A DNA stretch of 64,000 nucleotides from Candidatus Magasanikiibacteriota bacterium (lineage in GTDB: Bacteria > Patescibacteriota > Patescibacteriia > Magasanikbacterales > UBA922). The DNA is taken from the NCBI GenBank assembly GCA_016207245.1, contig JACQQA010000009.1, positions 9,165 to 73,164 of the forward strand, given 5' to 3'. A program made the position numbers and the translations under genes. The notes under the pieces were generated by a model. It saw only the letters and a program-made list of their open reading frames with translations, was not told the origin of the DNA and searched no databases. Every line of letters starts with the position of its first letter. Position 1 is the stretch's first letter. Of this stretch, positions 17,309-49,580 are shown piece by piece.

Positions 17309-17337
17309 TTGACAATTAAAGAAAAAAGTGATTTAAT
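17309..17337 (+). promoter_or_regulatory. Sigma70-type promoter TTGACA-N17-TTTAAT
   Basis: Hexamers and 17-nt spacer counted by hand, directly upstream of GC-rich island 1. Confidence 0.55.
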
Positions 17338-17356
17338 TCGCCGCAAGGAGGTGCCC

Positions 17357-17581
17357 ATGAGTTTCAAATTGACAGCAGAAATGAGACGAAGCGCTATGCC
17401 GCTCAACATTACCATAACTGAGGATGGCAAGTTTCGAGCATGGACAAGTTGCGAGGGTACAAGAAAGGCGGGAATCATGTTTCTTGAGGACTTCGCCCAG
17501 AGGCTCGTTCTGACAGATGACCAGTTGGTCGCTCTCGTTGGCGAGCTCTGCCAACAACTGCCGGATCTCCCGCCCCGCTGA
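17357..17581 (+). CDS. GC-rich island 1: 74-aa hypothetical protein
   Basis: AAGGAGG SD 6 nt before the ATG at 17357. Sequence MSFKLTAEMRR...ELCQQLPDLPPR; no family recognised. Confidence 0.55.
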   Translation: MSFKLTAEMRRSAMPLNITITEDGKFRAWTSCEGTRKAGIMFLEDFAQRLVLTDDQLVALVGELCQQLPDLPPR

Positions 17582-17625
17582 ATGCCACACCGCTCACCCG
17601 CCGAATCGGTGACGCAGGGAAACCC

Positions 17626-17708
17626 AAAACCCGCTCGCGCCACCATCTATCTTTCTAACTGAATTAGAAAAATAGATGGGAGGAATCCGCGAGCGGGTTT
17701 TGTTTTTT
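17626..17708. terminator. Nested double hairpin, bidirectional terminator
   Basis: Outer stem AAAACCCGCTCGCG/CGCGAGCGGGTTTT encloses CCATCTAT...ATAGATGG. A T-run follows. It sits between convergent genes. Confidence 0.7.
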
Positions 17709-18429
17709 ACACTCTCTCCCACAAATTTTCAAACATCGCCATCTCCATATCAGCTAATTCTTTGCTTTCAATAACAACGGCAACAAAATCGCCGGTAAAA
17801 GAAAACATGGCGATTTTATTTTTCCATATATATTTTAATCCGTGAAAAGGATAATCGTCTTTGACTAACTTCATCTGCCGCAATTCTTTTGGAGCGAGAG
17901 CCTGTCTCTCCCTGGCCGCGGCTGAATCTCGGGCAATTACCCTGACTGGAATTTTCTTTTCCATTCTTTTCATCAAAAATTTCCGATGGCGCTCGCCTAA
18001 CTCACTCAAATAATCGCCGGCAGAGGCAAAACACGTTATGGCTTCCGCTTCGCTCACGATTTCATTCAAAATCAACCCCATCTCTTCCTTGCCTTGATAA
18101 AAACGGACGGTCGGACGCTTTCTGGCGCGTCCGGCAATCGCGTTCAGTTCCGGCAATGCGTCTTTTAGAGTCGCCGCGCGGCTTTCGGCCAAACGAATAA
18201 TCTGACCCGGGTCTTCGGCGCTAAAATAATGGATCTGTTTTTTATTATAAGTGCTAACAAACCCTTCATCAACCAAGTGTTCTAAAACTTCATAAACTGT
18301 GGAGCGCGACAATCTTGCTTTTTGCGCTATTTTGACTACCGGCCCTGAGCCAAGCTCTAAGCAGGCTAAATATACTTTGGCTTGTTTTTCCGATAAACCA
18401 TAAGTTTGGAGAATCTTGGGTAGGTTCAT
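17707..18429 (-). CDS. TrmB-family transcriptional regulator (paralog 1)
   Basis: LSEKQAKVYLACLELGSGPVVKIAQKARLSRSTVYEVLEHLVDEGFV, an N-terminal TrmB-type wHTH. Confidence 0.8.
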   Translation of the reverse strand: MNLPKILQTYGLSEKQAKVYLACLELGSGPVVKIAQKARLSRSTVYEVLEHLVDEGFVSTYNKKQIHYFSAEDPGQIIRLAESRAATLKDALPELNAIAGRARKRPTVRFYQGKEEMGLILNEIVSEAEAITCFASAGDYLSELGERHRKFLMKRMEKKIPVRVIARDSAAARERQALAPKELRQMKLVKDDYPFHGLKYIWKNKIAMFSFTGDFVAVVIESKELADMEMAMFENLWERV

Positions 18430-18467
18430 ATTATTGTCGGCAAAAGCGACGATATTTTTATATCAAT

Positions 18468-18508
18468 ATTTTAGCATAGATAAGCTAATTTGTCAAGGGT
18501 GTGGATAA
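18468..18508 (-). promoter_or_regulatory. Promoter TTGACA-N17-TAAAAT with an abutting perfect DnaA-box 9-mer
   Basis: -10 at 18468-18473, -35 at 18491-18496, TGTGGATAA at 18500-18508. Confidence 0.55.
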
Positions 18509-18524
18509 CAAACTGTCGTTAATA

Positions 18525-18553
18525 TTGGCAAACATAAAAAAATTTCTTATACT
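18525..18553 (+). promoter_or_regulatory. Promoter TTGGCA-N17-TATACT for GC-rich island 2
   Basis: Spacer counted by hand. It is followed by the leader hairpin TCCACT-CCACGG...CCGTGG-AGTGGA. Confidence 0.5.
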
Positions 18554-18622
18554 GCCCTGTTCCACTACCACGGTACAGTGCCGTGGAAAGTGGACGCTCG
18601 TTCAAAACAAAGGAGACAGACA

Positions 18623-19153
18623 ATGAAACACACGGTATTCGTCATCGTTCGCCACGCCGAGGTGGACAAGAAACACCCTCTGGGCGAAAGCGCCCCGCTC
18701 ACCGAGAATGGGGTGAAGCAGGCGAAGGAATTGGCCCGAAAGTGTAAGAACGCGGGAGTAGGCCTGGCCGTTCTCCCCACCGAAGACCTGCCGAGGTTCA
18801 GTCAGGCCGCGGCCGAGATGGAGGCGGTCGGGATCAGGGTGAAACGCGTGGACGGCATCAGCTTCAAGAACATGAAGGGCCAGATCCCAATCCGCGAAAT
18901 CGCCGCGAAGTACCGCGAAGCTGGGCTGACTCTCGTGTTCAAGCTGTTGAACCTCGGCACCGTGGCCAAGGGCGAGAAGGTCGTCATCATCGGATCCTAT
19001 CCGCTCATCGCCGGCCTGCGCTACGATCCGGCCACAGCCACGGACGAAGAGCTGGAAACCAAGCCGGACTTCTGCACCGGCATTGTGGTTGAAATCGCCA
19101 GCAACGGCATGGTGACAGTCACCTCACATGACTTCTGCCCTCTGGATGACTAG
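18623..19153 (+). CDS. GC-rich island 2: histidine-phosphatase-like (SixA/PGAM-type RHAE motif) protein
   Basis: AAAGGAG SD. VFVIVRHAEVD...PLTENGVKQAKELA resembles the N-terminal RHG motif region. The second catalytic His is not evident (GSYP). Confidence 0.45.
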   Translation: MKHTVFVIVRHAEVDKKHPLGESAPLTENGVKQAKELARKCKNAGVGLAVLPTEDLPRFSQAAAEMEAVGIRVKRVDGISFKNMKGQIPIREIAAKYREAGLTLVFKLLNLGTVAKGEKVVIIGSYPLIAGLRYDPATATDEELETKPDFCTGIVVEIASNGMVTVTSHDFCPLDD

Positions 19154-19284
19154 TCTCTCTGATCTCCTTTCTTTTTTGCGCGACCTCTCCTGATGCACAT
19201 CAGGACTGAGACCACCGCGCAATTCCCTTTTGCTTATCAATTTGGTAATCAGGATGGAGGAAATAACTTTTAAACTAAAAATTT

Positions 19285-19950
19285 ATGCTGTACAAAAATA
19301 TCAGTGTGGAAAAAATTTTTCATGCCGGAATAAAAATCAAAAATAATTCTACTGTCATTTATGTTGACCCGCTCAATCTGCCGACTGATTCTGAATCTGC
19401 TGATTTTGTTTTAATCACACATGAACATTTAGACCACCTCAGTCCAAACGATATCAAAAAAATTTCCGGTAAAAATACAGTCATAATTACAACCCCGCTC
19501 TGTGCGAAAAAAATATCTGGAATTGAAAATAAACAAATTTTACATACTAAACCTGGAAAAATTTTTGATTTTGGCAATCTAAAAATATCCGCTGTTCCAG
19601 CCTATAACACCAACAAATTCCGCTCCCCAGGCGTTCCTTTTCATCCAAAAGAACACGGCGGAGTTGGTTTTGTTTTGGGGATTGACGGTGTAAAAATTTA
19701 TCACGCGGGCGACACTGATGTTGTTCCTGAAATGAGTGATTTAAAAGATGTTGATGTCGCGCTTCTGCCTGTTTCCGGGATCTTTGTTATGACACCGGAA
19801 GAAGCGGCCGAAGCCGCTGGAACTATCAAGCCCGCTCTTGCCATACCCATCCACTATGGCGATTTTGAATTTAACGGCCAAATAGTCGGCGCTAAAGAAA
19901 ACGGCGCCAAATTCAAATCTCTCTGTAATTTTCCAACAAGTATTGTATAG
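19285..19950 (+). CDS. MBL-fold metallo-hydrolase
   Basis: ITHEHLDHL (HxHxDH) motif. Confidence 0.85.
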   Translation: MLYKNISVEKIFHAGIKIKNNSTVIYVDPLNLPTDSESADFVLITHEHLDHLSPNDIKKISGKNTVIITTPLCAKKISGIENKQILHTKPGKIFDFGNLKISAVPAYNTNKFRSPGVPFHPKEHGGVGFVLGIDGVKIYHAGDTDVVPEMSDLKDVDVALLPVSGIFVMTPEEAAEAAGTIKPALAIPIHYGDFEFNGQIVGAKENGAKFKSLCNFPTSIV

Positions 19951-21439: not shown

Positions 21440-21513
21440 AAACGCTTCGCTATTATTATTGACACCCGCCAAAAAACACGATATACTCTACTCGTAGAAA
21501 CAATAACAATAAT

Positions 21514-21927
21514 ATGACGATAAACATTAAAAAATTATTTAACTACTGGCTGTCAGACGCAGAGGAAAGCTGGAGCGTGGCGGAGTCCTTAATGGAAAAA
21601 AATAAATACCCTGAAGCGTTATTTTTTGGACATCTGGCGCTAGAAAAAACACTGAAAGCGATAGTTGTCGCCAAACACAATGCTCACGCTCCGCCTATAC
21701 ATAATTTATTAGAATTGTGCAAAAAAACCGATATCGTCCTAGATAATAGACTCGTTGCGGAATTGCGCTTGTTCAGCGGCTTCTACATGGCCGGAAGATA
21801 CGATGAAGAAAAAATGGACTTCCGCAAAAAATGCACGAAAAAATTCAGCGAGGAAAATTTGAAAAAGATAAAAAAGTGTTATCTATGGCTAAAAGACGAA
21901 GCAAAAAAAATCTCCCGCTTGCTGTAA
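21514..21927 (+). CDS. HEPN domain protein (TA toxin-like)
   Basis: HEPN-like helices and a MAGRYDEE (R-x4-6-H-like) region. Paired with a nucleotidyltransferase. Confidence 0.7.
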   Translation: MTINIKKLFNYWLSDAEESWSVAESLMEKNKYPEALFFGHLALEKTLKAIVVAKHNAHAPPIHNLLELCKKTDIVLDNRLVAELRLFSGFYMAGRYDEEKMDFRKKCTKKFSEENLKKIKKCYLWLKDEAKKISRLL

Positions 21928-22220
21928 GCTCTTACATCTGGGGATACTTGACGATGCTGGAGAAGCAGGGCGTTCCGATCAAAAACGCCTATCTTTTTGG
22001 TTCGTGGGCAAAAGGCGCGCAACACAAAGATAGCGATATTGATCTGGCGATTGTTTCGTCCGCGTTTACTACCTGGTCTAAAAAAACAGAAAAATTAAGC
22101 CGAGCCATGCGAATGGACTTTAGTTTAATTGAATCGCACGGATTCCATCCCAAACAATTTGATCCTGAAATAAATCCCGTAGCGCACGAAATATTAAAAT
22201 ACGGAATAAAAATAATATAG
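21885..22220 (+). CDS. Minimal nucleotidyltransferase (MNT) domain protein
   Basis: YLFGSWAKGAQHKDSDIDLAIVS (GS...DxD). Start chosen at MAKRRSKK; 43-nt overlap with HEPN. Confidence 0.7.
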   Translation: MAKRRSKKNLPLAVSSYIWGYLTMLEKQGVPIKNAYLFGSWAKGAQHKDSDIDLAIVSSAFTTWSKKTEKLSRAMRMDFSLIESHGFHPKQFDPEINPVAHEILKYGIKII

Positions 22221-22302
22221 TATAAAAATACCCCGACAAACTGCCGGGGATATTTTTTTGTTGCCGCTTGCAAATCGTTGGTTGTTAGTTGCTAATTTTT
22301 AA

Positions 22303-29793: not shown

Positions 29794-31161
29794 ATGCCAA
29801 TTAACCGACATAAAATTCTGCTGGTTGGCCTAAAAAGCCTGGTTTATCTAAAACGAGGCTTGATTTGGTCGTTGACGCGGATTTCTTTTTTATTTATCAA
29901 GCTCGGCCTGCTCGGAAAAAATATTTTCGGCTTTAGGGTTTTAAAAATCGGCTTTCGTTTTAAAAAATTGTTCGGCAAACTTAATTTAGGCGGCAACAAT
30001 CGCCTAACTGAATTGCTGGGGGCAAGGTGGACACTGCAAATAATTATTTTCCTTGTCATAACTTTTTTAATGGTCCCGCATAGCCGGCTTTACACGCGCG
30101 ACACGACTGAAATCGCGGGCCAAAAAACCTTGCTTTACAAAATCGTCGGCCCGGGCGAACAAGACTTTAGTCTTGACGCGATAACTTTTGAAACCGTTTC
30201 CGCTACAGTTCAAGAAAAAACCGCGCCGAACTGGAAAGAGGGCGCGGTTGGCGCGCAACCCGGCGCGACGGCCGGCGCCGCGAGCCAGCCGTTTCAACCG
30301 CAGGATATCGCGTCCATAAGTTCCGGCGGCATGGCTTTATCAAAGCCGACCATCTTGCCCGGGGCAGTTGTTCCGGGCTCAACTTCCGGCCCGACAAGAA
30401 CGCAAATTGTTTTACATACCGTGCAAACCGGCGACACCATCGGCAGTATCGCGGAAAAATATCGCGTCAGCATAGCCACCATACTTTGGGCTAATAACCT
30501 AACCGAGCGTTCTTACATCCGGCCGGGAAACGAATTAAAAATCTTGCCGGTGTCCGGACTTCTTCATACCGTTAAAAAAGGCGACACAATCGCGAAAATC
30601 GCCAAACTCTACAAAACTGACGCGGAAAAAATAATTAAATTTAATAAATTAAAAGAAGACGGATCTGATGTGGTAATCGGCGAAGGATTGGTAATTCCCG
30701 ATGGTTTGAAACCGCAGCCGGTTTACGCTCCGAGCCGCGTTTACACCCAGCTTGGCAGTGTTTCCGCGCCGCCGTATTCGGTTAACGCGCCCGCCGGCTC
30801 CGGTTATTTATGGCCGACAACCGTACGCAGAATCACGCAGTACTTTAGTTGGCGGCATACCGGCATAGATATCGCCGGCCCGGTTGGCACGCCGATTTAC
30901 GCGTCGCGCAACGGAACGGTTATCCGCTCGCAATGCGGCTGGAACGGCGGTTACGGCTGTTATATAATAATCGACCACGGCGGCGGAATCACCACTCTTT
31001 ACGGCCACAACTCGCGCTTGTATGTGAAAGTCGGCGAATCAGTTTCGCAAGGCCAGACCATCGCTCTCATGGGCTCTACCGGACGCTCAACCGGCCCCCA
31101 CTCGCACTTTGAAGTCCGCGTCAACGGCCGCCGTGTCAATCCGTTCCAATACGTAAAATAA
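29794..31161 (+). CDS. LysM-domain M23 family metallopeptidase
   Basis: Two LysM repeats (HTVQTGDTIGSIAEKY.., HTVKKGDTIAKIAKLY..) and M23 motifs HTGIDI...GSTGRSTGPHSHFEV. Confidence 0.93.
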   Translation: MPINRHKILLVGLKSLVYLKRGLIWSLTRISFLFIKLGLLGKNIFGFRVLKIGFRFKKLFGKLNLGGNNRLTELLGARWTLQIIIFLVITFLMVPHSRLYTRDTTEIAGQKTLLYKIVGPGEQDFSLDAITFETVSATVQEKTAPNWKEGAVGAQPGATAGAASQPFQPQDIASISSGGMALSKPTILPGAVVPGSTSGPTRTQIVLHTVQTGDTIGSIAEKYRVSIATILWANNLTERSYIRPGNELKILPVSGLLHTVKKGDTIAKIAKLYKTDAEKIIKFNKLKEDGSDVVIGEGLVIPDGLKPQPVYAPSRVYTQLGSVSAPPYSVNAPAGSGYLWPTTVRRITQYFSWRHTGIDIAGPVGTPIYASRNGTVIRSQCGWNGGYGCYIIIDHGGGITTLYGHNSRLYVKVGESVSQGQTIALMGSTGRSTGPHSHFEVRVNGRRVNPFQYVK

Positions 31162-31163
31162 AT

Positions 31164-32684
31164 ATGTTTACAAAAATAAACTCGTCCACCACTGTCGGTC
31201 TGGATTGCGCGCCGATTACCGTGGAAATTGATCTTGGCAAAGGTTTTCCTAATTTTCAAATCGTCGGCTTGCCTGATACCGCGATACAAGAAGCCAAAGA
31301 AAGAATCCGAGCGGCGTGGAAAAACAGTGAATTGCATTTTCCCAACGGCCACCGGATTTTAATTAACCTCGCGCCCGCAGATGTGCGCAAAGAAGGGTCG
31401 GCTTTTGACTTGCCAATGGCTGTCGGCATGTACACCGCGCTGGAATTGCCGGAATTGGATTTGAATAATTCAATTTTTATCGGCGAATTGGCGCTGGATG
31501 GAAAACTCCGGCGCACTACCGGAATTTTGCCGCTGGCGATTTACGCGAAACAAGCCGGCTACCAAAAAATTTTTGTGCCGGCGAGCAACGCGAAAGAAGC
31601 CGGACTGATTTCCGGCATTGAAATTTATCCGGTGGAATCTTTTCGCGCGATAGTAAATCACTTGTCTGAATTTGAACAAATCCCACAGCTTCCGCCGCAA
31701 GAAATCAGCAAACTATTTTCCCGCTCTGTTTACGAAATGGACATGGCATATATAAAAGGACAGGAATATGTTAAACGGGCGATGGAAATCGCGGCTTCCG
31801 GCGCGCATAACATCTTGCTCTCCGGCCCGCCCGGGTCTGGCAAAACTTTGCTGGCGAGAACTTTGCCGTCAATCTTGCCGCAAATGACCGCGGATGAAGC
31901 GATTGAAGTAACAAAAATTTATTCGGTTGCCGGCATGTTGCCGGAAGAAATGCCGTTAATCACTGAACGCCCTTTTCGCGCCCCGCATCACAGCGCGTCA
32001 GATGTGGCTCTGGTCGGCGGCGGCAAGTTTCCGCGCCCCGGAGAAATTTCTCTCGCCCACCGCGGCGTTTTATTTTTAGATGAATTTCCGGAATTTCCGC
32101 GCACGGTTTTGGAAAGTCTGCGCCAACCCCTAGAAGACGGCGTCGTCACCATCTCCCGCGCCCAGGGAACAATTACCTTTCCCGCCAGTTTCACATTAGT
32201 CGCGAGTCAAAATCCCTGTCCTTGCGGCTATGCCACTGATCCGGATCGAACCTGCTCGTGTTCGCCGATGCAGGTCTCGCGTTATCAAAAAAAAATCAGC
32301 GGCCCATTGTTGGACCGCATTGATTTGCACGTGGAAGTGCCGCGAGTGAAATTTGAAAAACTCGCGAAAGAAGAGTTGGCGGAATCTTCGGAAAAAATCC
32401 GCGAGCGGGTTGAGGCCGCGCGCGAACGGCAAAGAAAAAGATTGAAAGATTCGCCGTATCAAGCGAACAGCGAAATGAAAAACAAAGACATCAGAGAATT
32501 TTGCAAATTAAACGACCAATCAATTGATTTGCTCCGCCAGGCCGTAACCCAAATGCATCTCTCCGCCCGCGGTTATCATCGCATCTTAAAACTCGCCCGC
32601 ACCATCGCCGACCTCGGCGGGTCTGACGACATTGCCACCGAACATGTGGCCGAAGCTTTGCAGTATAGAGCGAAGGTGGAATGA
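31164..32684 (+). CDS. comM: YifB/ComM family Mg-chelatase-like AAA+ ATPase
   Basis: Lon-like N-domain, GPPGSGKT Walker A, full-length YifB-like sequence. Confidence 0.93.
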   Translation: MFTKINSSTTVGLDCAPITVEIDLGKGFPNFQIVGLPDTAIQEAKERIRAAWKNSELHFPNGHRILINLAPADVRKEGSAFDLPMAVGMYTALELPELDLNNSIFIGELALDGKLRRTTGILPLAIYAKQAGYQKIFVPASNAKEAGLISGIEIYPVESFRAIVNHLSEFEQIPQLPPQEISKLFSRSVYEMDMAYIKGQEYVKRAMEIAASGAHNILLSGPPGSGKTLLARTLPSILPQMTADEAIEVTKIYSVAGMLPEEMPLITERPFRAPHHSASDVALVGGGKFPRPGEISLAHRGVLFLDEFPEFPRTVLESLRQPLEDGVVTISRAQGTITFPASFTLVASQNPCPCGYATDPDRTCSCSPMQVSRYQKKISGPLLDRIDLHVEVPRVKFEKLAKEELAESSEKIRERVEAARERQRKRLKDSPYQANSEMKNKDIREFCKLNDQSIDLLRQAVTQMHLSARGYHRILKLARTIADLGGSDDIATEHVAEALQYRAKVE

Positions 32685-32830
32685 GATGACGTGAAATGGA
32701 GTATAGAACACGTAACTTAGGAACAAATTAGACAATTTAATTTTTTACAACTCCCTCACCACAATAATTTGCAACGAAAGAGATGTGCCCTGCGACTTCC
32801 GAGTGCCGGAAGTCCAAGGCTCGCCTTCCG

Positions 32831-33052
32831 TTACCCGTGCGGAAGGAACACGTTTTTGGGACCTTCGGGCCCGAAGAACTTCTCCGTGGCCCAAAAGATC
32901 CACGTCCAGTGGATCGTGGCAACAATGACGGCCGCCAAGGCCGCTATTATCGCCCCGGTGCTCTGGATAAGCACCAAAAATACAGAAAGTGGGCCAGCGC
33001 CGGCCCACAACACTGCCGCGACAAACAGTACCACAAAAAATACACTTTTCAC
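32831..33052 (-). CDS. GC-rich island 3: 73-aa two-TM membrane protein
   Basis: TAGGAGG SD 6 nt before GTG at 33052. VKSVFFVVLFVAAVLWAGAG...IIAALAAVIVATIHW. Followed by hairpins GACTTCCG/CGGAAGTC and CCTTCCG/CGGAAGG. Confidence 0.5.
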   Translation of the reverse strand: MKSVFFVVLFVAAVLWAGAGPLSVFLVLIQSTGAIIAALAAVIVATIHWTWIFWATEKFFGPEGPKNVFLPHG

Positions 33053-33123
33053 TTCTCGCCTCCTATTTAAAGAACACTTTCGGGTACTCTCTGCCACCAT
33101 GACAGTTCATTCCCGAACAATTA

Positions 33124-33152
33124 AGTATATTCTATTTTTACAATTTTGTCAA
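33124..33152 (-). promoter_or_regulatory. Promoter TTGACA-N17-TATACT for island 3
   Basis: Counted by hand. The leader contains a TTCGGG...CCCGAA stem. Confidence 0.6.
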
Positions 33153-33256: not shown

Positions 33257-34003
33257 GTGGTCAAAGAAAAACTAAAATCCGCCCTACGGGGGTATGGCTT
33301 AAACGACAGAGAAACCGGTGTGTATCTTGCCTTATTGGAGTTGGGTGTGGCCAATGGCCACGAGGTGGCGGAAAAATCCGGAATGATTAGAACAACAACT
33401 TACAGCTTGCTGGAAGAGTTAAAAAGAAAAGGCTTGGTAACCGAAGTCGAAAAAGGGAAGATAAAACACTACTCAATAGAAAACCCGCAAAAAATAATTA
33501 CTGAAATGGAAGAAAGAAACAAGTTAATAAAAGAAACGCGAGGGGAGCTCTTGTCTTTATATCAAGCCGCGGAACATCGGCCGATAGTGCGATTTTATAA
33601 AGGTTTGGAAGCGATAAAAAAATTGCACGATGACATTCTGAAAGAACGCGGACTTAAACAATATGATATTCTGACTGCCGAAGCTGACTGGCTGAATCTG
33701 GATAAAGAATTTTTCTCATCTTTTTTGCAGCGTCGCGCTGACCGCGGCATCCATACTCGCCTGATTCTTGACAGTAAATCTAAGGGGTTAGAGCATCAAG
33801 AAAAAAACAAACAACTGAACAGGGAGGTGAGGTTTTTGCCGCCCGAATACCAGGACGCTTACACTTCTGAAGTCTATATCATGCCACGCAAAGTGATTTT
33901 CATCGCGGAAAAAAAAGAATTGCTGGCCGTGGAAATTGAAAGCATGGATATTGTTGAGGCACAGCAATTCTTGTTTAATTTTTTGTGGAATAATACAAAA
34001 TAA
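33257..34003 (+). CDS. TrmB-family transcriptional regulator (paralog 3), GTG start
   Basis: GLNDRETGVYLALLELGVANGHEVAEKSGMIRTTTYSLLEELKRKGLV. Confidence 0.8.
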   Translation: MVKEKLKSALRGYGLNDRETGVYLALLELGVANGHEVAEKSGMIRTTTYSLLEELKRKGLVTEVEKGKIKHYSIENPQKIITEMEERNKLIKETRGELLSLYQAAEHRPIVRFYKGLEAIKKLHDDILKERGLKQYDILTAEADWLNLDKEFFSSFLQRRADRGIHTRLILDSKSKGLEHQEKNKQLNREVRFLPPEYQDAYTSEVYIMPRKVIFIAEKKELLAVEIESMDIVEAQQFLFNFLWNNTK

Positions 34004-35190: not shown

Positions 35191-35660
35191 AAAAAAGGCG
35201 GTCAAGCGCCCTAGGTAAATAACTTAACGGCGTGCCGCCTCAGTATCCCCAGGATACGCCTTTCAGGTAATCTAAAGGTGTTTTCCTCGCCACGCCGTAG
35301 TCCGCCCGAGGCGGACGAAGGCAGGCAAAAATACACTTAGAATACCTGAAACGCGACTGTCCTTGGGGACAGTAGTCTCCTTTCTACCGCCATAAGGTGG
35401 ACATTCCCGGCGATTCGGCCCGAAGGCACAAAACGCATAATGGGAAGTCACCGTTTCGAGCTAGCCATTAATTTTTGGCTTTTATTTTTGTTTCTTCGTC
35501 ACGCCGTAGTCCGCCCGAGGCGGACGAAGGCGGACACCCGATTGAGTCGGGAGCTAACGAATGGTAAGCTCGAAATTTGAGGTAGTAAAAAGGGAAGTGC
35601 TCCACCTGAATAAATTCAGAAGGAACAAATCCTGACTTTTAAAGAACAATTTTAAAGTAT
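35191..35660 (-). ncRNA. Candidate ~470-nt structured RNA of unknown class
   Basis: ORF-free region with a consensus promoter at 35667-35695 and a GGCG..CGCC + T6 end at 35191-35210. Many hand-paired helices, for example ACUGUCC-CCAA-GGACAGU, CCCGA-CUCAA-UCGGG, GUAUCC-UGGG-GAUAC, GGCGU...ACGCC. A ~36-nt hairpin module is duplicated. Confidence 0.6.
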
Positions 35661-35666
35661 ATTAAT

Positions 35667-35695
35667 AGTATAGCACATTTTTTAACTCTTGTCAA
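35667..35695 (-). promoter_or_regulatory. Promoter TTGACA-N17-TATACT driving the candidate ncRNA
   Basis: -35 at 35690-35695, -10 at 35667-35672, 17-nt spacer counted by hand. Confidence 0.65.
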
Positions 35696-35812: not shown

Positions 35813-35857
35813 AGTTATCCACAATTTAGCCAAGTTTTCCCCAGAGTTATCCACAAT
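35813..35857 (+). promoter_or_regulatory. Two identical 13-mers AGTTATCCACAAT, each with a perfect DnaA box TTATCCACA, 32 bp apart
   Basis: Boxes at 35815-35823 and 35847-35855, upstream of the ncRNA promoter and next to an AT-rich tract (35712-35752). Confidence 0.55.
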
Positions 35858-37500: not shown

Positions 37501-37572
37501 TGCCCTCGGAGGGAATTGAACCCCCATTTCGTCCTTAGGACGGACTTGTTCTATCCGTTGAACTACGAGGGC
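37501..37572 (-). tRNA. tRNA-Arg (anticodon CCU)
   Basis: Hand-folded: acceptor GCCCTCG/CGAGGGC, D stem GTTC/GAAC, anticodon loop GTCCTAA, T arm GGGGGTTCAATTCCCTC. One mismatch at the top of the anticodon stem. Confidence 0.75.
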
Positions 37573-37777
37573 CAAAGCCGTGGCGGGCAGGTATCCGTTG
37601 CCATGCACCGCGTGGGGCGCATGGTCCGCCTCTGGCGGAAACTACGAGGGCTTATTTCGCGATATGACAATCTTCTGACCACCAAAAATAATGGACAAAA
37701 GATTGTTGGGGCGGTGTGAATGATAGTCGCCCCAAAGAAAAAGAACGGGTGGGCCATGGTTTCAACGCGCCGGCGTT

Positions 37778-37981
37778 TTACTCCACTGCTAGAGGTGGGG
37801 CGACAAAGGATGTTGTGGAAGCCGAAGGCGGGGATTGTGAGCCGTTGTCAGGAGTCTCCCCACAACAGCGCGGACAACAATGCCCTTCGCAGGTGTGTTC
37901 GTTGCCATGGTCTGGCTTTCCTGCGCAACAGCCCGATTGACCACGACAGGACGGTGGAGAAAGTGTATTGGAAAGATTCAC
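37778..37981 (-). CDS. GC-rich island 4: 67-aa Cys-rich peptide (8 Cys, 3 His)
   Basis: AAAGGAGG SD 5 nt before GTG at 37981. (M)NLSNTLSPPSCRGQSGCCAGKPDHGNEHTCEGHCCPRCCGETPDNGSQSPP...; consensus promoter upstream. Confidence 0.5.
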   Translation of the reverse strand: MNLSNTLSPPSCRGQSGCCAGKPDHGNEHTCEGHCCPRCCGETPDNGSQSPPSASTTSFVAPPLAVE

Positions 37982-38051
37982 TCTTACCTCCTTTTGGATT
38001 TTCCGCCTTGAACATTCAGGGCGGTACCGCATTTGCATACGGATGGCCGGT

Positions 38052-38080
38052 AGTTTACTGACAAAAATAAATTTTGTCAA
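38052..38080 (-). promoter_or_regulatory. Promoter TTGACA-N17-TAAACT for the Cys-rich peptide gene (and possibly downstream tRNAs)
   Basis: Counted by hand. Confidence 0.55.
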
Positions 38081-38148: not shown

Positions 38149-38406
38149 ATGGCGGACAAAAATCAAATTTCTACAGCCGAGCTGGCCAAAATGCTCAGAA
38201 TCAGCCGGGTGGCGATTTTTTATAAAATCAAACGCGGAGAAATACCGGCGATTAAGGTTGGACGAAATTATGTTATCAACACTTTTGATTTGCCGTATTT
38301 ATTTGGTCATGAATTAAATGCGGATAATAAGCGCGAGGTTGTCGGCGCGGTAAGACGAACAGTCAAACAATACCGCAAAACCCTGGAATTGCTGGGACGA
38401 GAATAA
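38149..38406 (+). CDS. Excisionase/MerR-type HTH protein (likely antitoxin of Doc)
   Basis: LAKMLRISRVAIFYKIKRGEIPAIKVGRNYVI (HTH_17-like). 5 nt upstream of the Doc gene. Confidence 0.7.
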   Translation: MADKNQISTAELAKMLRISRVAIFYKIKRGEIPAIKVGRNYVINTFDLPYLFGHELNADNKREVVGAVRRTVKQYRKTLELLGRE

Positions 38407-38411
38407 TTTTT

Positions 38412-38828
38412 ATGCGCAAAATTTATATTCAAGAGGTAGAATTCGTCGCGCATACCTTGGCGAAAGAAACCGTGGCTTGGAATGAACCAATCCCGCCTTT
38501 TGATACCCGTTTCCCTGGTGTTTTGGAAGGATGTCTCGCCACGCCTTTTGGCGCCTTCAGCAGACATCCGTTTTATCCCGGCCTTACCGGCAAAGCCGCC
38601 ATGCTTTTTTATTTGTTGATAAAAAACCACCCTTTCCAAAACGGCAACAAAAGAATCGCTGTGGTCGCCCTGTTGTTTTTCTTGTTAAAAAACAAAAAAT
38701 GGATTAGAGTTGATAGTGTAGAATTCTACAATTTCGCCCGGTGGGTGGCGGAAAGCAACCCTAAACTAAAAAACGAAACTGCGGCGGCGATAAAAAAATT
38801 CATTGATACTTACCTAACTGACACCTAA
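38412..38828 (+). CDS. doc: Fic/Doc family toxin (death-on-curing)
   Basis: HPFQNGNKRIAVVAL is the Fic motif HxFxxGNKR. Confidence 0.85.
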   Translation: MRKIYIQEVEFVAHTLAKETVAWNEPIPPFDTRFPGVLEGCLATPFGAFSRHPFYPGLTGKAAMLFYLLIKNHPFQNGNKRIAVVALLFFLLKNKKWIRVDSVEFYNFARWVAESNPKLKNETAAAIKKFIDTYLTDT

Positions 38829-39917: not shown

Positions 39918-40013
39918 CAGAACACAGAATGCAAATAACAGAATACTTTTGTGAACGATTTTTGTCACTGTCGTCAAATCGTTGTATTCTGTTATTTGTG
40001 TCCTGCATTTTGA
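39916..40013. repeat. P1 palindromic element, alpha core
   Basis: Arms cagaacacagaatgcaaataacagaatac / gtattctgttatttgtgtcctgcattttg around the core ttttgtgaacgatttttgtcactgtcgtcaaatcgtt. Confidence 0.8.
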
Positions 40014-41418: not shown

Positions 41419-42819
41419 ATGACTAATCACGAAATATGGCAAGCAGTGTTAGCAGAGTTTGAATTAAAGCTAACTAAAGCCAATTTTACCACATGGTTCC
41501 ACCACACCGGCATATCTGAATATGAAAACAATCAGGTGGTGATTTGTGTTCCCAGCGCTTTTGCCAAAAACTGGCTAGAAAAAAAACACCACTCTGAAGT
41601 GGTAAAAATACTGGAAAAAGTGACTGGGAAGCCTTTAAAAAGGGTGGAATATCGAGTGGAAAACATAAAAAACATCGCGGAGCATGAGTGTGTTGTTGCC
41701 ACAACAAAAACAACACCTGCTCCGACTAGTGCTTTGGTGGCGCCCCAAAACATTCCAACACCCAAAACAAGCGGCCAAAACGGCGTTAGGTTTGGCCTTA
41801 ACCAAAACTACCTCTTTGATACTTTTGTTGTTGGCAAAGGTAATGAGTTGGCGCACGCCGCGGCTCAAGCGGTTGTAAATAGGCCGGGAGAAGCTTACAA
41901 TCCTCTCTTTATATATGGCGGAGTGGGTTTGGGAAAAACCCATCTTTTGCAAGCGATTGGACATGGTCTTTTGGAAAAAAACCCGCAAACCAAGATTCTT
42001 TATGTGAGTTCCGAGCGTTTTACCAATGATTTTGTATCTTCGGTTAAAGAGGGCCGAGCCAAAGAGTTTAAAGATCGGTACCGCAATGTTGATTTATTAT
42101 TAATTGATGATATTCAGTTCATTGGCGGCAAAGAACAGACACAAGAAGAGTTTTTTCACACCTTTAACGAACTACACCAACAACACAAACAGGTGGTAAT
42201 GACGTCTGATCGTCCGCCAAAAGCTATTCCGTCGCTGGAAGACCGTTTGCGCAGCCGTTTTGAGTGGGGAATGATTGTTGATGTGGCGGCGCCAGATCTT
42301 GAGACTCGCGTAGCTATTTTACAAACAAAGTGCCAAGAAAAATCTTTTATTTTAGACCAAAAACTCGTTCAAATGGTCGCGGTTGCCATCCAAAGCAATA
42401 TCCGTGAACTTGAGGGGGTTCTAAATAAAATAATCGCGGTCCACCAACTAAAAAACATGTCACCAAACGAAGAGTCGGTCCGGTCAGTCTTGTCCACATT
42501 GGAAGCGCAAAACCTGAGGCGTTCGGCAACACCAAAAGATGTTGTTGGTGTTGTTTCCGAGTTTTATGGTGTCGGACTTGACGATATTGTTGGCAAAAGC
42601 AGGGAAAAACGCTTGGCCGGACCGCGGCAGGTTGTCATGTTTTTGTTGCGCAACGAGCTAAAGATGTCTTATCCCGCAATTGGCGATGAGTTGGGCGGCA
42701 GAGACCACACCACGGCCATGCACGCGCACACCAAGGTCGGCACAGAAATGGAAAACGACCTTAAACTAAAACAGGATATTGAGGCAATCAAACAAAAATT
42801 ATATATTGGCGCCAGCTAA
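41419..42819 (+). CDS. dnaA: Chromosomal replication initiator DnaA
   Basis: GGVGLGKTHLLQAIG Walker A and C-terminal DHTTAMHA DNA-binding motif. Confidence 0.98.
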   Translation: MTNHEIWQAVLAEFELKLTKANFTTWFHHTGISEYENNQVVICVPSAFAKNWLEKKHHSEVVKILEKVTGKPLKRVEYRVENIKNIAEHECVVATTKTTPAPTSALVAPQNIPTPKTSGQNGVRFGLNQNYLFDTFVVGKGNELAHAAAQAVVNRPGEAYNPLFIYGGVGLGKTHLLQAIGHGLLEKNPQTKILYVSSERFTNDFVSSVKEGRAKEFKDRYRNVDLLLIDDIQFIGGKEQTQEEFFHTFNELHQQHKQVVMTSDRPPKAIPSLEDRLRSRFEWGMIVDVAAPDLETRVAILQTKCQEKSFILDQKLVQMVAVAIQSNIRELEGVLNKIIAVHQLKNMSPNEESVRSVLSTLEAQNLRRSATPKDVVGVVSEFYGVGLDDIVGKSREKRLAGPRQVVMFLLRNELKMSYPAIGDELGGRDHTTAMHAHTKVGTEMENDLKLKQDIEAIKQKLYIGAS

Positions 42820-44192: not shown

Positions 44193-44216
44193 TTGGGGGA
44201 GGGAGGAGAGGTGGGA

Positions 44217-44717
44217 TTAGGGCAGAGAGACAATTGACATGCGAAGGTCTTCCGCCATAGCCAATTCTTTCGCGCAGCCGGTAGATCCAGGGAGATCTTC
44301 CTTGAAGTGGTAGAGTGTCGCGCCTCTTTTGCTAAGCGCCACAATCACCCACACCCAAAAGACCATGTGCTCGGTTGGTCCCCAATGGGTCGACGGCATT
44401 TTGTCGGCGGCAGGATTGATCGTGTTTGAAGGAAGGTGTTTTGCGCGCCACTTACCGAGCAGGATGTTTTTTTGGTACGTCCAGCCAAGAGTGCCGTTGT
44501 CACCAATACGAGTGGACAAGTAGTGTTCAGCCGACAAGAGTTTGCGCAGGAAACAGCAGACTTCTCTTGGACTAAGCATGATTCCAAGAATGAAAGCGGC
44601 CGGACGGAACGGACGATAGCCGTTCGTGGTGCGGAGCTTCAGAATTTCGTAGCGGCGCAGAAGATGAAGCGTGGTGCGGATAGTGTGGGGGGAGAACAGC
44701 GCCAGATACCTCTGCAT
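44217..44717 (-). CDS. GC-rich island 5: 166-aa hypothetical protein
   Basis: GAGGAGG SD 5 nt before the ATG at 44717. MQRYLALFSPHTIRTTLHLLRRYEILKL...; no family recognised. Confidence 0.5.
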   Translation of the reverse strand: MQRYLALFSPHTIRTTLHLLRRYEILKLRTTNGYRPFRPAAFILGIMLSPREVCCFLRKLLSAEHYLSTRIGDNGTLGWTYQKNILLGKWRAKHLPSNTINPAADKMPSTHWGPTEHMVFWVWVIVALSKRGATLYHFKEDLPGSTGCAKELAMAEDLRMSIVSLP

Positions 44718-44784
44718 CACAGCCTCCTCTCTGTGTGTGTTGAGAACCTCTCCGTTATTGATAAAAAGAACCAAATGAATTTTA

Positions 44785-47763: not shown

Positions 47764-47862
47764 ATTTGGCTTATTTAAGCTGGTTTTTTGTTAGTTTGAC
47801 CAATGTAAATATTATATCACACTATTGACAAAAGCGCATTTTTATGATATAATGTCGCGGTT

Positions 47863-48369
47863 ATGAGTTTACTTAACAAAAGTCAAAAAATTTGGGTAAA
47901 AAGAACTGTCGCCATATTGGCCATAATCAGTTTTATTGTGTCTGCCGGCAGGCCGCAGATGGCCGAAGCCGTGTCTTTGGCCGACTTGTTTAGTTTGGAT
48001 TTTGTAAACGCGGTTGAGCCATCTGAATTGCCAACCTCTTCTGACCGCGAGCCGGTAAGGATGGTTTGGGTGGTAGTAACGGCCTATTCCAGCACTTCTG
48101 ACCAAACTGACAACACACCTTGCATTGCCGCCAAAGGTTTTGATTTGTGCAAAGCGCATGCGGAATTCGGCGAGGGCAACACGATCGCCGCCAACTTTTT
48201 GCCGATAAACAAACAAATTAAACTGCCGGAACTGTTCGGCGACAAAACTTTCGTGGTTCGCGACCGCATGAACGAACGCTACGGCAACGGCCGGATTGAT
48301 GTCTGGATGCCGACGCGGGAAATGGCGAAAGAGTTTGGGGTGAAGAGGGTGAAGATGGAGATTTATTAA
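47863..48369 (+). CDS. 3D-domain (MltA/YuiC-like) cell-wall protein
   Basis: VVVTAYSSTSDQTDNTPCIAA...VVRDRMNERYGNGRIDVWM. Confidence 0.8.
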   Translation: MSLLNKSQKIWVKRTVAILAIISFIVSAGRPQMAEAVSLADLFSLDFVNAVEPSELPTSSDREPVRMVWVVVTAYSSTSDQTDNTPCIAAKGFDLCKAHAEFGEGNTIAANFLPINKQIKLPELFGDKTFVVRDRMNERYGNGRIDVWMPTREMAKEFGVKRVKMEIY

Positions 48370-48370
48370 T

Positions 48371-48400
48371 CAGAATGCAAAATTCAGATAACAGAATACA
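48371..48400. repeat. P1 element, isolated left arm
   Basis: cagaatgcaaaattcagataacagaataca. Confidence 0.65.
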
Positions 48401-48404
48401 TACG

Positions 48405-48430
48405 AAACCCGCCGATGAGGCGGGTTTTAG
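48405..48430 (+). terminator. Rho-independent terminator
   Basis: AAACCCGCC-GATGA-GGCGGGTTT followed by TAGTTT. Confidence 0.7.
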
Positions 48431-48434
48431 TTTG

Positions 48435-48506
48435 AGGTACCGGCGAGAATTGCACTCGCGCATAGAGGTTTTGCAGACCTCTGCCTTACTGCTTGGCTAC
48501 GGTACC
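48435..48506 (-). tRNA. tRNA-Cys (anticodon GCA)
   Basis: Hand-folded: acceptor GGTACCG/CGGTACC, anticodon stem GAGGT/ACCTC with loop CTGCAAA, T arm GCGAG-TGCAATT-CTCGC. Confidence 0.8.
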
Positions 48507-48556
48507 GCGAATGTGGATATTCTAACATTTTTTTCAAATTAGTCAACCGGCAGCCG

Positions 48557-48660
48557 CAGAAATCAGAAGACAGATAACAGGATACATTTTTGTGAACGAT
48601 TTTTATCACTGTCGTCAATTCGCTGCATTTTGTTATCTGTATTCTGAATTCTGACATCTG
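48557..48660. repeat. P1 palindromic element, alpha core
   Basis: Arms cagaaatcagaagacagataacaggataca / tgcattttgttatctgtattctgaattctg. The core is near-identical to the copy at 39947-39983. Confidence 0.8.
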
Positions 48661-48662
48661 TC

Positions 48663-48691
48663 TTGACTTTTTTTTCGCCAACAAATATAAT
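48663..48691 (+). promoter_or_regulatory. Promoter TTGACT-N17-TATAAT for island 6
   Basis: Counted by hand. Confidence 0.6.
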
Positions 48692-48893
48692 TAACCCCAT
48701 CGTCTCGGCGAACCGAGGCAGACACAGCTCGTATGCGACGGGTTGCCGCATTTCGCGGTCTTTTCTCTACCTTGGCTGTCGTATTAAGGAGGACGGCAGA
48801 CGAATTTGGTGAATCCAAGGAATGAGACAAGAGCGTCTGGTTTGGCGAGTCGGACAGTGACAACACTGGTTCTCAACCAACAGAAAGGACAAG
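48692..48893 (+). promoter_or_regulatory. ~200-nt GC-rich structured 5' leader (candidate cis-regulatory RNA)
   Basis: Hand-paired stems GTCT-CGG-CGAA-CCG...AGAC, ATGCG...CGCAT, and CCTTGG...CCAAGG enclosing CTGTCGT-ATTAAGGAGG-ACGGCAG. Confidence 0.4.
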
Positions 48894-49325
48894 ATGAAGA
48901 AGATTCTCGGAATTGCAGCGGTTCTGCTCCTTTGTGGGGCGACCGCCTCTGCCAAGGCGACCGGTGTCGGTCCGCCTTCCAACGCGCGGGACTGTATCAG
49001 TATATGCTTCGGCGACATGGCGATCGGCGTGCAGGTCAATGGCGACCAGGCAGCCGACATCGGCGTGATCTTCAACGACACCGCGATCTTCATGGGCGCG
49101 ACTGACGGCGGCTTACAAGAGTACCTGCACGTCATACACATCGCGGCGACACAGCTCGAGGCCAACTCTGGCTCGGCAACGGGGGTGGACCTCCTGGGCG
49201 CCGGGAAGATTGACGCGGCCTTCTTCATGAGCGAGGATGAGGCGCAGCCTGTGTCCACGGCTGTCATTCACTCTCCGCCACCCGACCCCAACACCGGATT
49301 CCGTGGCATCACCAGCGTCGGCTGA
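48894..49325 (+). CDS. GC-rich island 6: secreted 143-aa hypothetical protein
   Basis: Signal peptide MKKILGIAAVLLLCGATASA. No family recognised. Followed by GGGAGGGC...GCCCTCCC and a CGCCC...GGGCG + T6 terminator. Confidence 0.55.
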   Translation: MKKILGIAAVLLLCGATASAKATGVGPPSNARDCISICFGDMAIGVQVNGDQAADIGVIFNDTAIFMGATDGGLQEYLHVIHIAATQLEANSGSATGVDLLGAGKIDAAFFMSEDEAQPVSTAVIHSPPPDPNTGFRGITSVG

Positions 49326-49580
49326 ACTGCTGCGTATCCTCGGGGGCGGTCGCCTCCGCTGTTCTTTCACACACCACGGGAGGGCTGAACAGACATGCTC
49401 TGACTTCGCCCTCCCAAACTCCCATAAAATCAAACCCGCCCCAAGCTTGCCGAAGGGCGTTTTTTATTTCGCCGACTTCCAACCATTCGTTGTTAATTGT
49501 TAGTTGCTCATTGCTAATTGTATTGTTAAGATGTAAAATTGTTTTAGTTAACAAGCAGGCTGTATGGTAATAATTCGTGT

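Follow-up and report, generated by a model that had tools for sequence, protein, structure and literature searches.

GC-elevated, Shine-Dalgarno-led gene islands in the origin region of a Magasanikbacteria genome as possible native units with structured mRNAs

Main finding

A stretch of 64,000 nucleotides from an ultra-small groundwater bacterium, Candidatus Magasanikbacteria (Patescibacteria, or Candidate Phyla Radiation, CPR), was analyzed (GenBank contig JACQQA010000009.1, positions 9,165 to 73,164); this whole stretch is called the window. Six short single-gene units, islands 1 to 6, lie scattered between 17 and 50 kb of the window among ordinary genes, which we call the backbone. We believe that the islands are native accessory transcription units of the Magasanikbacteria-related clade of Patescibacteria, kept as structured mRNAs and not imported recently. 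This is the best explanation of the data, and we hold it with about even confidence. It builds on the anatomy of the units, two regimes of start sites, synteny in relatives, a maintained base composition, conserved elements in the untranslated regions (UTRs), and the rapid divergence of the encoded products.

An initial annotation had taken the islands for a family of domesticated foreign cassettes, for example from the high-GC host of an episymbiont, or for effectors under special translational control. The observation behind it is real and is now well characterised. All six units exist at the places given, the base counts were exact (37/60 and 21/60 G+C), and all six quoted pairs of a Shine-Dalgarno (SD) sequence and a start codon are present. 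The story of their origin is wrong for the islands that could be tested.

One island product is identical to a protein that NCBI lists under a Candidatus Magasanikbacteria metagenome-assembled genome. The window has a GC content of 0.449 and covers the neighbourhood of the replication origin. It carries ftsK, recA, the H+-pyrophosphatase gene, ychF, rmuC, rnpA, rpmH, dnaA, dnaN, a class A penicillin-binding protein (PBP) gene, polA, holA, and tig, together with three regulators of the TrmB family. Relatives were studied as metagenome contigs (loci labelled L0xx), and a PBP-based metagenome scan gave 42 loci. Literature searches on CPR bacteria with SD sequences, with GC islands or with leaderless translation yielded no account of such a combination.

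Two regimes of translation start

The starts of 41 curated backbone genes were compared with the six island starts. An SD was present at all six islands and at 3 of the 41 backbone starts (Fisher p = 8e-6, a value that is optimistic, as the SD guided the choice of the island starts). The backbone, earlier described as SD-less, is SD-poor. A T at position -1, giving UAUG, preceded 34 of the 41 backbone starts and none of the six island starts (p = 1.6e-4). After pooling with relatives, it was found at 3 of 19 island-type starts and at 118 of 158 backbone starts (p = 8e-7). The more distant loci L034 and L035 had T(-1) at only 5 of 23 backbone starts. Examples in the window are the starts at 41419, 43068, and 47863, and the pattern was also seen across L004-L040. 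In backbone genes the -10 box often lies just 7-25 nt from the ATG, and the upstream DNA is A/T-rich. This context suggests short-leader or leaderless initiation with a clade-specific extended start context. Backbone leaders are short or absent, AU-rich, and free of SD, with a U(-1)AUG start, and the islands are SD-led. The earlier wording of a special translational control fits, since the initiation signal of the islands differs from that of the backbone.

The association was also found outside the window. Among 456 ORFs (open reading frames) from 30 loci, GC outliers were enriched for SD (odds ratio 5.3, p = 7e-4), and a 5-nt SD motif stood before any candidate start in about 11% of the ORFs, both values coming from a crude gene caller with errors. 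Around the start, homologs of island 5 at 30% identity have only GGAGG and its spacing in common. Five small genes found in relatives at the place of island 6 (slot 6, described below) all have GGAG, GAGG or AGGA 5-9 nt before the start. In both gene sets, this points to selection on the SD. The 3' terminus of 16S rRNA was looked for in the window and in the relatives' loci, and none was present. We argue that the anti-SD is probably functional here because GGAGG alone was kept in island 5 homologs of 30% identity, and a usable 16S anti-SD is presumably present in this clade.

Composition of the islands

The GC content of the six island segments is 0.53-0.59; the window as a whole has 0.449, and the intergenic DNA of the backbone has 0.347. 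In a scan with 300-nt windows (mean 0.449, standard deviation 0.052), the only true outliers were islands 2 and 6, with maxima of 0.63-0.64; the maxima of islands 1, 3, and 4 are 0.55-0.56, and that of island 5 is under 0.55. The coding sequences of islands 2 and 6 deviate clearly (GC 0.60 and GC at third codon positions, GC3, 0.80 for island 2; 0.62 and 0.77 for island 6), and the deviation elsewhere is modest. Both have a strong coding periodicity, with GC at the three codon positions of 0.61/0.39/0.80 in island 2 and 0.61/0.49/0.77 in island 6. The periodicity is weaker in islands 3, 5, and 1 (0.55/0.43/0.66 in island 3). The ORF of island 4 has none (0.57/0.65/0.46), and the window's version of it was absent from the protein collection. 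Stretches of backbone genes reach 0.57-0.59, as in the M23/LysM peptidase gene (30051-31170) and ftsK. GC alone is therefore not diagnostic of the set, and the description of all six as GC-rich stands for islands 2 and 6; islands 1, 3, 4, and 5 are no richer than some of the backbone. What sets the islands apart is how four features combine: the SD, the missing T(-1), stem-loops where the 5' end is predicted, and 3' hairpins of great stability.

The enrichment reaches beyond codons. The island UTRs have a GC content of 0.45-0.57, well above that of backbone intergenic DNA. C-ending and G-ending codons are both elevated, and in two-fold pyrimidine boxes the C-ending fraction is 0.79-0.84 in islands vs 0.39 in the backbone. 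The borders are sharp and match the unit ends; over some 100 nt, GC drops from about 0.6 to about 0.35. The enrichment extends over the transcript as a whole, and a property at the level of the transcript fits these data best.

Two side observations concern the backbone. Inside the M23/LysM peptidase gene (30051-31170), an internal stretch has a GC content of 0.59-0.635 and matches most islands. Backbone codons are split: four-fold sites are 62% G+C, two-fold sites favour T (61%) and A (62%), and intergenic DNA is 35% G+C. The silent sites of the backbone are not simply AT-biased, because the four-fold sites are G+C-rich and the two-fold sites prefer T or A.

Island 2 is conserved with its composition

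Island 2 has four homologs among 5.8 billion proteins, and the relatives whose contigs were read, three besides the window's own protein, share its gene context, which is of CPR type. In L013 the ortholog (56% amino acid identity) lies between the TrmB gene and the Lactamase_B and PEP-utilizer genes, and these flanks are 57%, 65%, and 56% identical. In L014 and L015, whose contigs match closely, the ortholog is 80% identical and adjoins the TrmB and PEP-utilizer genes, with flanks of 85-90%. The orthologs have a GC of 0.60-0.62 and a GC3 of 0.77-0.87 vs 0.38-0.47 in their neighbours, and the SD is kept. Between the window and L013, synonymous sites are saturated in two of the three flanks (proportion of synonymous differences, pS, 0.77-0.83), and Lactamase_B is at 0.62. 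Given this saturation, the bias of island 2 has been maintained and more than merely retained. Same locus, same composition, same SD, and a divergence like that of the flanks are not what the initial annotation's foreign origin predicts.

The non-coding flanks of island 2 are conserved to a higher degree than its coding sequence. The control region between TrmB1 and island 2 was near-invariant in an alignment of four orthologous loci, and its conservation was also seen in L061. Compensatory changes are found in the stem-loop of the leader (CCACGG/CCGTGG, CCGTGG/CCACGG, and CCAUAG/UUAUGG). The 3' stem GCGCGACCUCUC...GAGACCACCGCGC is invariant over the four loci, and its inner loop is variable. 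In L005, the slot of island 2 keeps the conserved promoter region, but its SD-led ORF is not homologous and has a smaller excess of GC. A contig scan with TrmB1 gave relatives of 60-72% identity, around which the neighbour genes of the window, island 2 included, were undetected.

Conserved slots near the origin

Loci of the origin region share the order PolA-Exo53-[slot]-tRNA-Cys-o168-PBP-[slot]-DnaN-DnaA-RpmH-RnpA, and islands 6 and 5 of the window occupy the two slots. In the tRNA-Cys slot, a segment at least 2 standard deviations above the local GC was present in L019, L021, L029, L032, L033, and L040. Five of these loci have a small SD-led ORF with a hydrophobic N-terminus, and L032 has an orphan gene of 476 aa. 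The island 6 homolog of L033 showed 38% identity in tblastn over 163 aligned positions, with flanks that are 85-89% identical. The signal peptide and the C-terminus are kept, with 65% identity in the alignable ends, and the 200-nt leader and the 3' UTR have a nucleotide identity of 76-82%.

In the PBP-DnaN slot, island 5 homologs of 30-31% identity with a GGAGG SD were found in L021 and L040, where GC-rich segments of at least 2 standard deviations were also counted. Other GC-rich genes occupy this slot in L020, L023, and L026, where the segment also lies at least 2 standard deviations above the locus mean, and it is empty in L033, L019, L024, and L025. In L033 the slot of island 4 keeps the promoter, the SD, the position of the start, and the distance to the tRNA, and its ORF is an unrelated one of 88 aa. 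Island 3 and TrmB2 are missing in L026 and L032, where MgChl and LspA abut. The GC offset of the islands over the genome was +0.11 to +0.21 in relatives of 0.27-0.49 GC. Positional homologs of islands 5 and 6 with the GC offset and the SD, and an island 4 slot that keeps promoter and SD, likewise disagree with a foreign origin. The payloads appear to be clade-restricted, and most seem to evolve fast or to be swapped within conserved slots, as expected for functions at the cell surface or in host interaction.

RNA structure and the proposed mechanism

Transcription starts were predicted at 7 nt after the -10 box. From these positions, a stem-loop begins 0-4 nt downstream in islands 2, 3, 4, and 6. 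The leaders of islands 2, 3, and 4 fold more stably than expected (z = -3.3 to -3.8), and island 6 has a 5' hairpin, so that the hairpin-containing leaders of the earlier description stood for these four. Its GC-rich 3' hairpins are real: the 3' UTRs of islands 1, 2, and 3 have z = -4.3 to -7.8, the last value being that of island 1. Island 3 is structured throughout (whole unit z = -8.5, ORF alone z = -5.9). The minimum free energy of the coding bodies of islands 2, 3, and 6 is -0.39 to -0.45 kcal/mol per nt vs -0.287 +/- 0.035 in the backbone. In island 6, an SD-like AAGGAGG lies in a hairpin loop far upstream of the start and is kept in L033; it was seen in island 6 only.

We suggest that the island genes would be held as structured, long-lived mRNAs. 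The 5'-terminal stem-loop, together with a ribosome parked on the SD, would keep out the 5' exonuclease RNase J, PNPase would be halted at the 3' hairpins, and the GC-rich body would offer few single-stranded AU-rich cleavage sites. The structured leader would be barred from the SD-independent route of the backbone, so that the 30S subunit would be recruited through pairing of SD and anti-SD. In this proposal, composition and SD are two sides of one selected design, which would be why both persist after the synonymous turnover of the neighbours. Classical protection against a 5' exonuclease and PNPase is given by stem-loops at the 5' terminus, ribosomes bound to an SD (STAB-SD), and hairpins at the 3' end. 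At least 90% of CPR genomes have kept RNase J, RNase III, and PNPase (PMC12641178).

A wider version can be put forward tentatively, and we think it rather unlikely as a whole. The clade would have two initiation regimes kept apart by selection: housekeeping genes with U(-1)AUG and no need of an SD, and fast-evolving secreted, membrane or host-interaction genes in GC-rich, nuclease-resistant, SD-dependent mRNAs, placed in conserved slots and often beside a TrmB-type regulator. If this were true, the accessory set could be switched as a block, for example by how available the anti-SD is or by a global decay of RNA in attachment or dormancy, and the two regimes would explain a compositional island that does not ameliorate.

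Points against and rival explanations

Several results weigh against the reading of the islands as native structured units. Only 48% of Parcubacteria showed an anti-SD motif (PMC9297842). The islands had been described as mini-cassettes, which is borne out by promoters, leaders, SDs, and terminators of their own but is incomplete, since the consensus scan found no promoter for island 5, the promoter of island 1 is below the scan threshold, and island 4 showed no terminator. Islands 1 and 5 have no leader hairpin. The coding regions of islands 2 and 6 fold as their composition predicts (z = -1.2 and 0.0). Because these z-scores are ordinary, fold-specific selection is seen for the UTRs and island 3 only, and structural selection on the whole coding regions of islands 2 and 6 was rejected. 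Long perfect stems could be targets of RNase III instead of stabilisers. Three of the nine TrmB-like genes examined have an ordinary SD-less divergent partner (in L004, in L006, and the third TrmB of the window). Islands 1 and 3 are without orthologs in the data, and these two may have been acquired recently.

The most familiar rival is the recent transfer of single genes from high-GC donors, such as the host of an episymbiont, with retention of the donor's composition and SD. It would account for the atypical GC and SD and the sharp compositional borders. Island 5, and island 3 with TrmB2, are patchy among relatives, islands 4 and 6 abut tRNA genes, and the 12-nt tRNA-Arg copy, the tRNA-Cys half-copies of L021, and the very GC-rich slot gene of L032 (all described below) point the same way. 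However, island 2 is vertical, its divergence equals that of its flanks, and its GC3 is undiminished; positional homologs exist for islands 5 and 6, and island 6 has UTRs as well conserved as the DNA around it. The promoters of the islands are of backbone type. As had been stated, no integrase or transposase domain is present among the larger genes scanned between 17 and 50 kb, and the island products had no PHROG or PADLOC matches. Homolog searches of islands 2 and 5 gave a handful of relatives, none beyond the clade, and no sign of a high-GC donor, and the L032 gene, used as a probe for one, found no homolog but itself in 5.8 billion proteins. In addition, the constant GC offset tracks the GC of the genome, which is unexpected for fresh imports. 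Recent transfer is already contradicted for islands 2, 5, and 6, and we regard it as improbable for the set. The islands may have been acquired long ago, but this would leave the non-amelioration of their composition unexplained. An artefact of assembly or binning, in which a CPR genome was joined to a GC-rich organism, would also give sharp GC steps, but its probability is negligible. The junctions recur in separate single-run assemblies and in the NCBI metagenome-assembled genome (islands 1 and 2 have the same context on two contigs each, and island 2 on a third), the architecture recurs in unrelated metagenomes, and each of the islands has CPR genes on both sides within a single contig.

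Other rivals accept the islands as native. Some of them, chiefly islands 3 and 4, could be structured non-coding RNAs, island 4 being the 5' part of a tRNA operon transcript, and their ORFs by-products of stop-poor GC-rich sequence; we consider this unlikely, though less so than transfer. The chain of about nine hairpins in island 3, with the z-scores given above, speaks for it, as does island 4, where GC2 exceeds GC3, gene finders call no gene, no terminator was found from the ORF to tRNA-Arg, and the slot in L033 keeps promoter and SD and loses the ORF sequence. Against it, both versions of island 4 keep a correctly spaced SD and start codon at an equal distance from the tRNA, the island 3 ORF has coding periodicity and encodes two hydrophobic helices, no Rfam family matched at the gathering threshold or even at E <= 5, and islands 2, 5, and 6 are certainly coding, given the conservation at the amino acid level and the predicted folds for island 2 and the island 5 family. 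A further rival is GC-biased gene conversion at hot spots of recombination, in variable slots that would exchange alleles often. It agrees with the variable slot content, the fast divergence of the payloads, and the rise of both C- and G-ending codons, as a force that is not codon-specific predicts. It has little chance of being right, because the flanks that should carry recombination tracts are unaffected: GC drops from ~0.6 to ~0.35 in roughly 100 nt, and the adjoining conserved genes are unenriched. Island 2 has the strongest bias and yet is not unusually variable, and the SD, the missing U(-1), and the conserved hairpins would stay unexplained. An equally poor candidate is codon adaptation, with the islands very highly expressed and their C- and G-ending codons fitted to the tRNA pool. 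Strong promoters, SDs, and terminators do point to high output, and the C-ending preference in two-fold pyrimidine boxes agrees with it. It is unlikely because the expression proxies, trigger factor, RecA, and the H+-pyrophosphatase, have an ordinary GC3 of 0.44-0.55; moreover, G-ending purine codons and UTRs are enriched too, which tRNA matching does not predict. A diversity-generating retroelement target was also considered and rejected, as no reverse transcriptase or template repeat was present in the 17-50 kb searched.

Comparison with known systems

The islands combine known themes, namely atypical islets, a minority of SD-led genes within a genome poor in SDs, and mRNA stabilisation. Like the genomic islets of horizontal transfer, they are short, deviate in GC and codon usage, have sharp borders, lie in two cases by tRNA genes, are patchy, and are mostly orphans. 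Unlike such islets, they keep their deviation in same-locus orthologs after the neighbours reached synonymous saturation, showed neither mobility genes nor a donor lineage in the searches above, use host-type promoters, and have a GC offset that follows the GC of the host. Bacteroidia reportedly have SD-poor genomes with a sequestered anti-SD, in which rpsU (bS21) is said to be controlled through its SD. The similarity lies in a mostly SD-free initiation with AU-rich upstream DNA and in a few strong-SD genes that could form a separately controlled class. The differences are the other phylum, the U(-1) and very short leaders, and the nature of the SD genes, which here are GC-rich, fast-evolving, and accessory instead of encoding a ribosomal protein; the matching anti-SD would be as argued above.

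Known stabilisers at the 5' end of mRNAs are 5'-terminal stem-loops (ompA and aprE leaders) and the STAB-SD of Bacillus thuringiensis cry3A. The stem-loops of islands 2, 3, 4, and 6, a few nucleotides from the predicted 5' end, would match them, and further similarities are strong SDs, strong 3' hairpins, and the RNase J and PNPase of CPR bacteria. The AAGGAGG of island 6, in a loop about 100 nt before the start codon and kept in a relative, is similar to STAB-SD. The islands are different in that the entire coding body is GC-enriched and the design recurs in unrelated genes across the clade; their mRNA stability is a prediction. Integron gene cassettes are also single-gene units with variable slots and unrelated payloads. 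Cassettes typically have no promoter and terminator of their own, whereas the islands have them, with the exceptions given above, are dispersed, and showed neither a shared attC-like repeat nor an integrase. Only island 3 is similar to type I toxin mRNAs (hok, tisB, and fst type), sharing a hydrophobic product of small size, a strong SD, and an mRNA that is heavily folded and predicted to be stable. With 73 aa and two helices, its product exceeds the usual length, an antisense RNA gene is not evident, and the predicted fold leaves the SD unsequestered; a type I toxin was rejected for island 3 on product length and the missing antisense gene.

Deviant GC with a foreign-looking ribosome-binding site is a textbook signature of transfer. 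Here it is inherited vertically and held past neutral turnover, and for this reason compositional detectors of horizontal transfer would mislabel native genes in these genomes. For an uncultured CPR lineage, a concrete view of gene expression that can be tested emerges as well, with an SD-free U(-1)AUG bulk and an SD-reliant minority whose anatomy matches known mRNA-stabilising devices and the RNase J and PNPase repertoire retained in CPR. The payloads are candidate factors of the interaction between episymbiont and host because they are clade-restricted, secreted or membrane-associated, and fast-evolving. The island architecture would offer a route from sequence to further candidates of this kind.

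Anatomy of the six units

Promoters were scored by a consensus scan for the sigma-70 type, out of 12 matches. The claim that the islands sit behind backbone-type promoters held for islands 2, 3, 4, and 6, which matched at 10-11/12 positions. Independent gene calls exist for islands 1, 3, 5, and 6, and every contig read has a call of the gene of island 2.

Island 1 (17309..17706, plus strand) has TTGACA at 17309-17314 with a weak -10 box, the SD AAGGAGG at 17345-17351, and a coding sequence at 17357-17581 (74 aa, no known family). It ends in a nested 3' hairpin or terminator with a 14-nt outer stem (17626-17639 / 17688-17701). This 74-aa gene was also called on independent Logan contigs, and no relatives of island 1 were found in the relatives' loci. 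Island 2 (18525..19235, plus strand) starts with the promoter TTGGCA-17-TATACT (18525-18553), followed by a 5'-terminal stem-loop at 18561-18594, the SD AAAGGAG at 18609-18615, a coding sequence of 176 aa with a histidine-phosphatase fold (18623-19153), and the conserved 3' stem at 19178-19220. The divergent control region that it shares with TrmB1 (18430..18560) holds both promoters and a DnaA-box-like TGTGGATAA at 18500-18508. Perfect copies of TGTGGATAA occur five times (11338, 18500, 28688, 35815, and 35847) vs 0.55 expected. The copies at 35815 and 35847 are 32 nt apart, downstream of ychF, and the one at 18500 is conserved in all four orthologous loci.

Island 3 (32725..33152, minus strand) has the promoter TTGACA-17-TATACT (33152-33124), a 5'-terminal stem-loop at 33117-33079, the SD TAGGAGG at 33065-33059, and an ORF of 73 aa at 33052-32831. 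The hairpin chain runs consecutively through the ORF and the 3' UTR, and the gene is called in Logan assemblies. Island 4 (37573..38080, minus strand) has the promoter TTGACA-17-TAAACT (38080-38052), leader hairpins at 38042-38027 and 38024-38003, the SD AAAGGAGG at 37994-37987, and an ORF at 37981-37778 (67 aa, rich in Cys, Pro, Gly, and Ser) whose coding status is doubtful. A GC-rich hairpin region follows, and then tRNA-Arg(CCU) on the same strand (37572-37500). Because no terminator was found between the ORF and the tRNA, island 4 and tRNA-Arg may be co-transcribed. The 12 nt at the 5' end of tRNA-Arg(CCU) (37561-37572) have an exact copy about 70 nt upstream, inside island 4 (37640-37651), where 0 would be expected. 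This copy could be the scar of an old attachment site or the remnant of a tRNA duplication.

Island 5 (44217..44729, minus strand) sits between the PBP1 gene and dnaN, with the SD GAGGAGG at 44729-44723 and a coding sequence of 166 aa at 44717-44217. Island 6 (48663..49465, plus strand) has the promoter TTGACT-17-TATAAT (48663-48691) and a structured leader of roughly 200 nt with a 5' hairpin at 48702-48719. The hairpin with the SD-like AAGGAGG in its loop (48776-48799) lies about 100 nt ahead of the true SD, GAAAGGA at 48883-48889. The coding sequence (48894-49325, 143 aa, signal peptide) is followed by 3' hairpins at 49378-49415 and a terminator at 49431-49449 with a T-run.

Protein products

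The island products are unrelated to one another, which does not agree with the earlier idea of one family. The repeat search likewise showed no sequence relatedness between islands, no common repeat, and no attC-like sites. The only Pfam match was His_Phos_1 for island 2, and island 1 is an orphan. The description of the products as effector-like is fitting, as several are small proteins that are secreted, membrane-bound or Cys-rich, and evolve fast.

Island 2 matched His_Phos_1 at E = 3.6e-5. Its AlphaFold2 (AF2) model, with a pLDDT of just 65, matched TIGAR, phosphoserine phosphatase, and SixA in Foldseek at E = 5e-7. R10-H11 (the RH motif) is invariant across the 4 homologs. In the motif that would be expected to carry the second catalytic His, all four have GSYP or GSWP. 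By model and motif, the product of island 2 is a putative divergent histidine phosphatase with a branch 1 fold and an N-terminal RH motif.

The island 5 family has 15 representatives in 1.84 billion proteins, and its C-terminal domain is confidently modelled (AF2 pLDDT 95). DUF4406 was matched weakly by 3 of the 15 members (best E = 0.054). In Foldseek, deoxyribosyltransferases had a top probability of 0.57 with TM 0.41-0.44, but E was >= 0.66, and a sequence-profile search of the PDB with the family was empty. These are weak hints of DUF4406 or a nucleoside 2'-deoxyribosyltransferase. The product of island 6 is small, and by inspection its N-terminus resembles a signal peptide. The product of island 3 has two clean hydrophobic helices, and that of island 4, if translated, is a Cys/Pro/Gly-rich peptide.

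Regulators beside the islands

The divergent neighbours of islands 2, 3, and 4 are TrmB1, TrmB2, and an HTH_17 gene, respectively. TrmB1 (17707..18429, minus strand) is a winged-helix regulator by its Pfam TrmB match. Its pairing with island 2 is kept in L013 and L014, and from this arrangement TrmB1 is the probable regulator of the unit. TrmB2 (33257..34003, plus strand), also identified with Pfam, is 29% identical to TrmB1 in BLASTP. A TrmB-like gene with a divergent SD-led, GC-elevated gene was also found in L013, L019, L026, L034, and L005. The pair of regulator and payload looks like a unit that is gained and lost.

Two pairs resembling toxin-antitoxin systems are present in the window: HEPN with a minimal nucleotidyltransferase (21514-22220), and HTH_17 with Fic/Doc (38149-38828). 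The second is divergent from island 4 and was undetected in the closest relative, L033.

Other features of the slots and the window

In L032, the tRNA-Cys slot gene (7192-8622, minus strand) is 476 aa long, with GC 0.70 and GC3 0.93 in a genome of 0.49 GC. In the window, tRNA-Cys (48434-48506) has its own promoter and terminator and is bracketed by inverted repeats of about 30 nt (the CAGAATGCAAAATTCAGATAACAGAATACAT family, 48371-48654). A third copy of this family lies after rmuC (39918-40013). Relative to its neighbours, tRNA-Cys is in minus orientation in L019, L029, L032, and L033, and in plus orientation in L021, L040, and the window equivalent. The flip looks like an inversion mediated by the CAGAATGCAAAATTCAGATAACAGAATACAT-family repeats. 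In L021, partial copies of tRNA-Cys flank the full gene, a 33-nt 5' part at 8740-8772 and, at 9205-9244, a 40-nt 3' part with 100% identity, which hints at a past integration or rearrangement at this slot.

A gene for a DUF559 protein (Vsr-like endonuclease, 49540-50038) adjoins island 6, with the G/C-rich palindrome CCCCTCCCCTATGAGGGGAGGG ahead of it, and no homolog was detectable in the fetched loci, the closest relative L033 included. In L005, an extra AT-rich ORF beside TrmB (5520-6000) is flanked by similar CCCCTCTAGAGAGGGG palindromes. This may be a small selfish insertion. On the minus strand at 35195-35695, a promoter (TTGACA-17-TATACT) and a terminator enclose about 460 nt without a convincing ORF or an Rfam match, which may be a non-coding RNA not yet annotated. 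A 46-nt element with a GUCCGCC...GGCGGAC hairpin occurs there twice (35282-35327 and 35491-35536).

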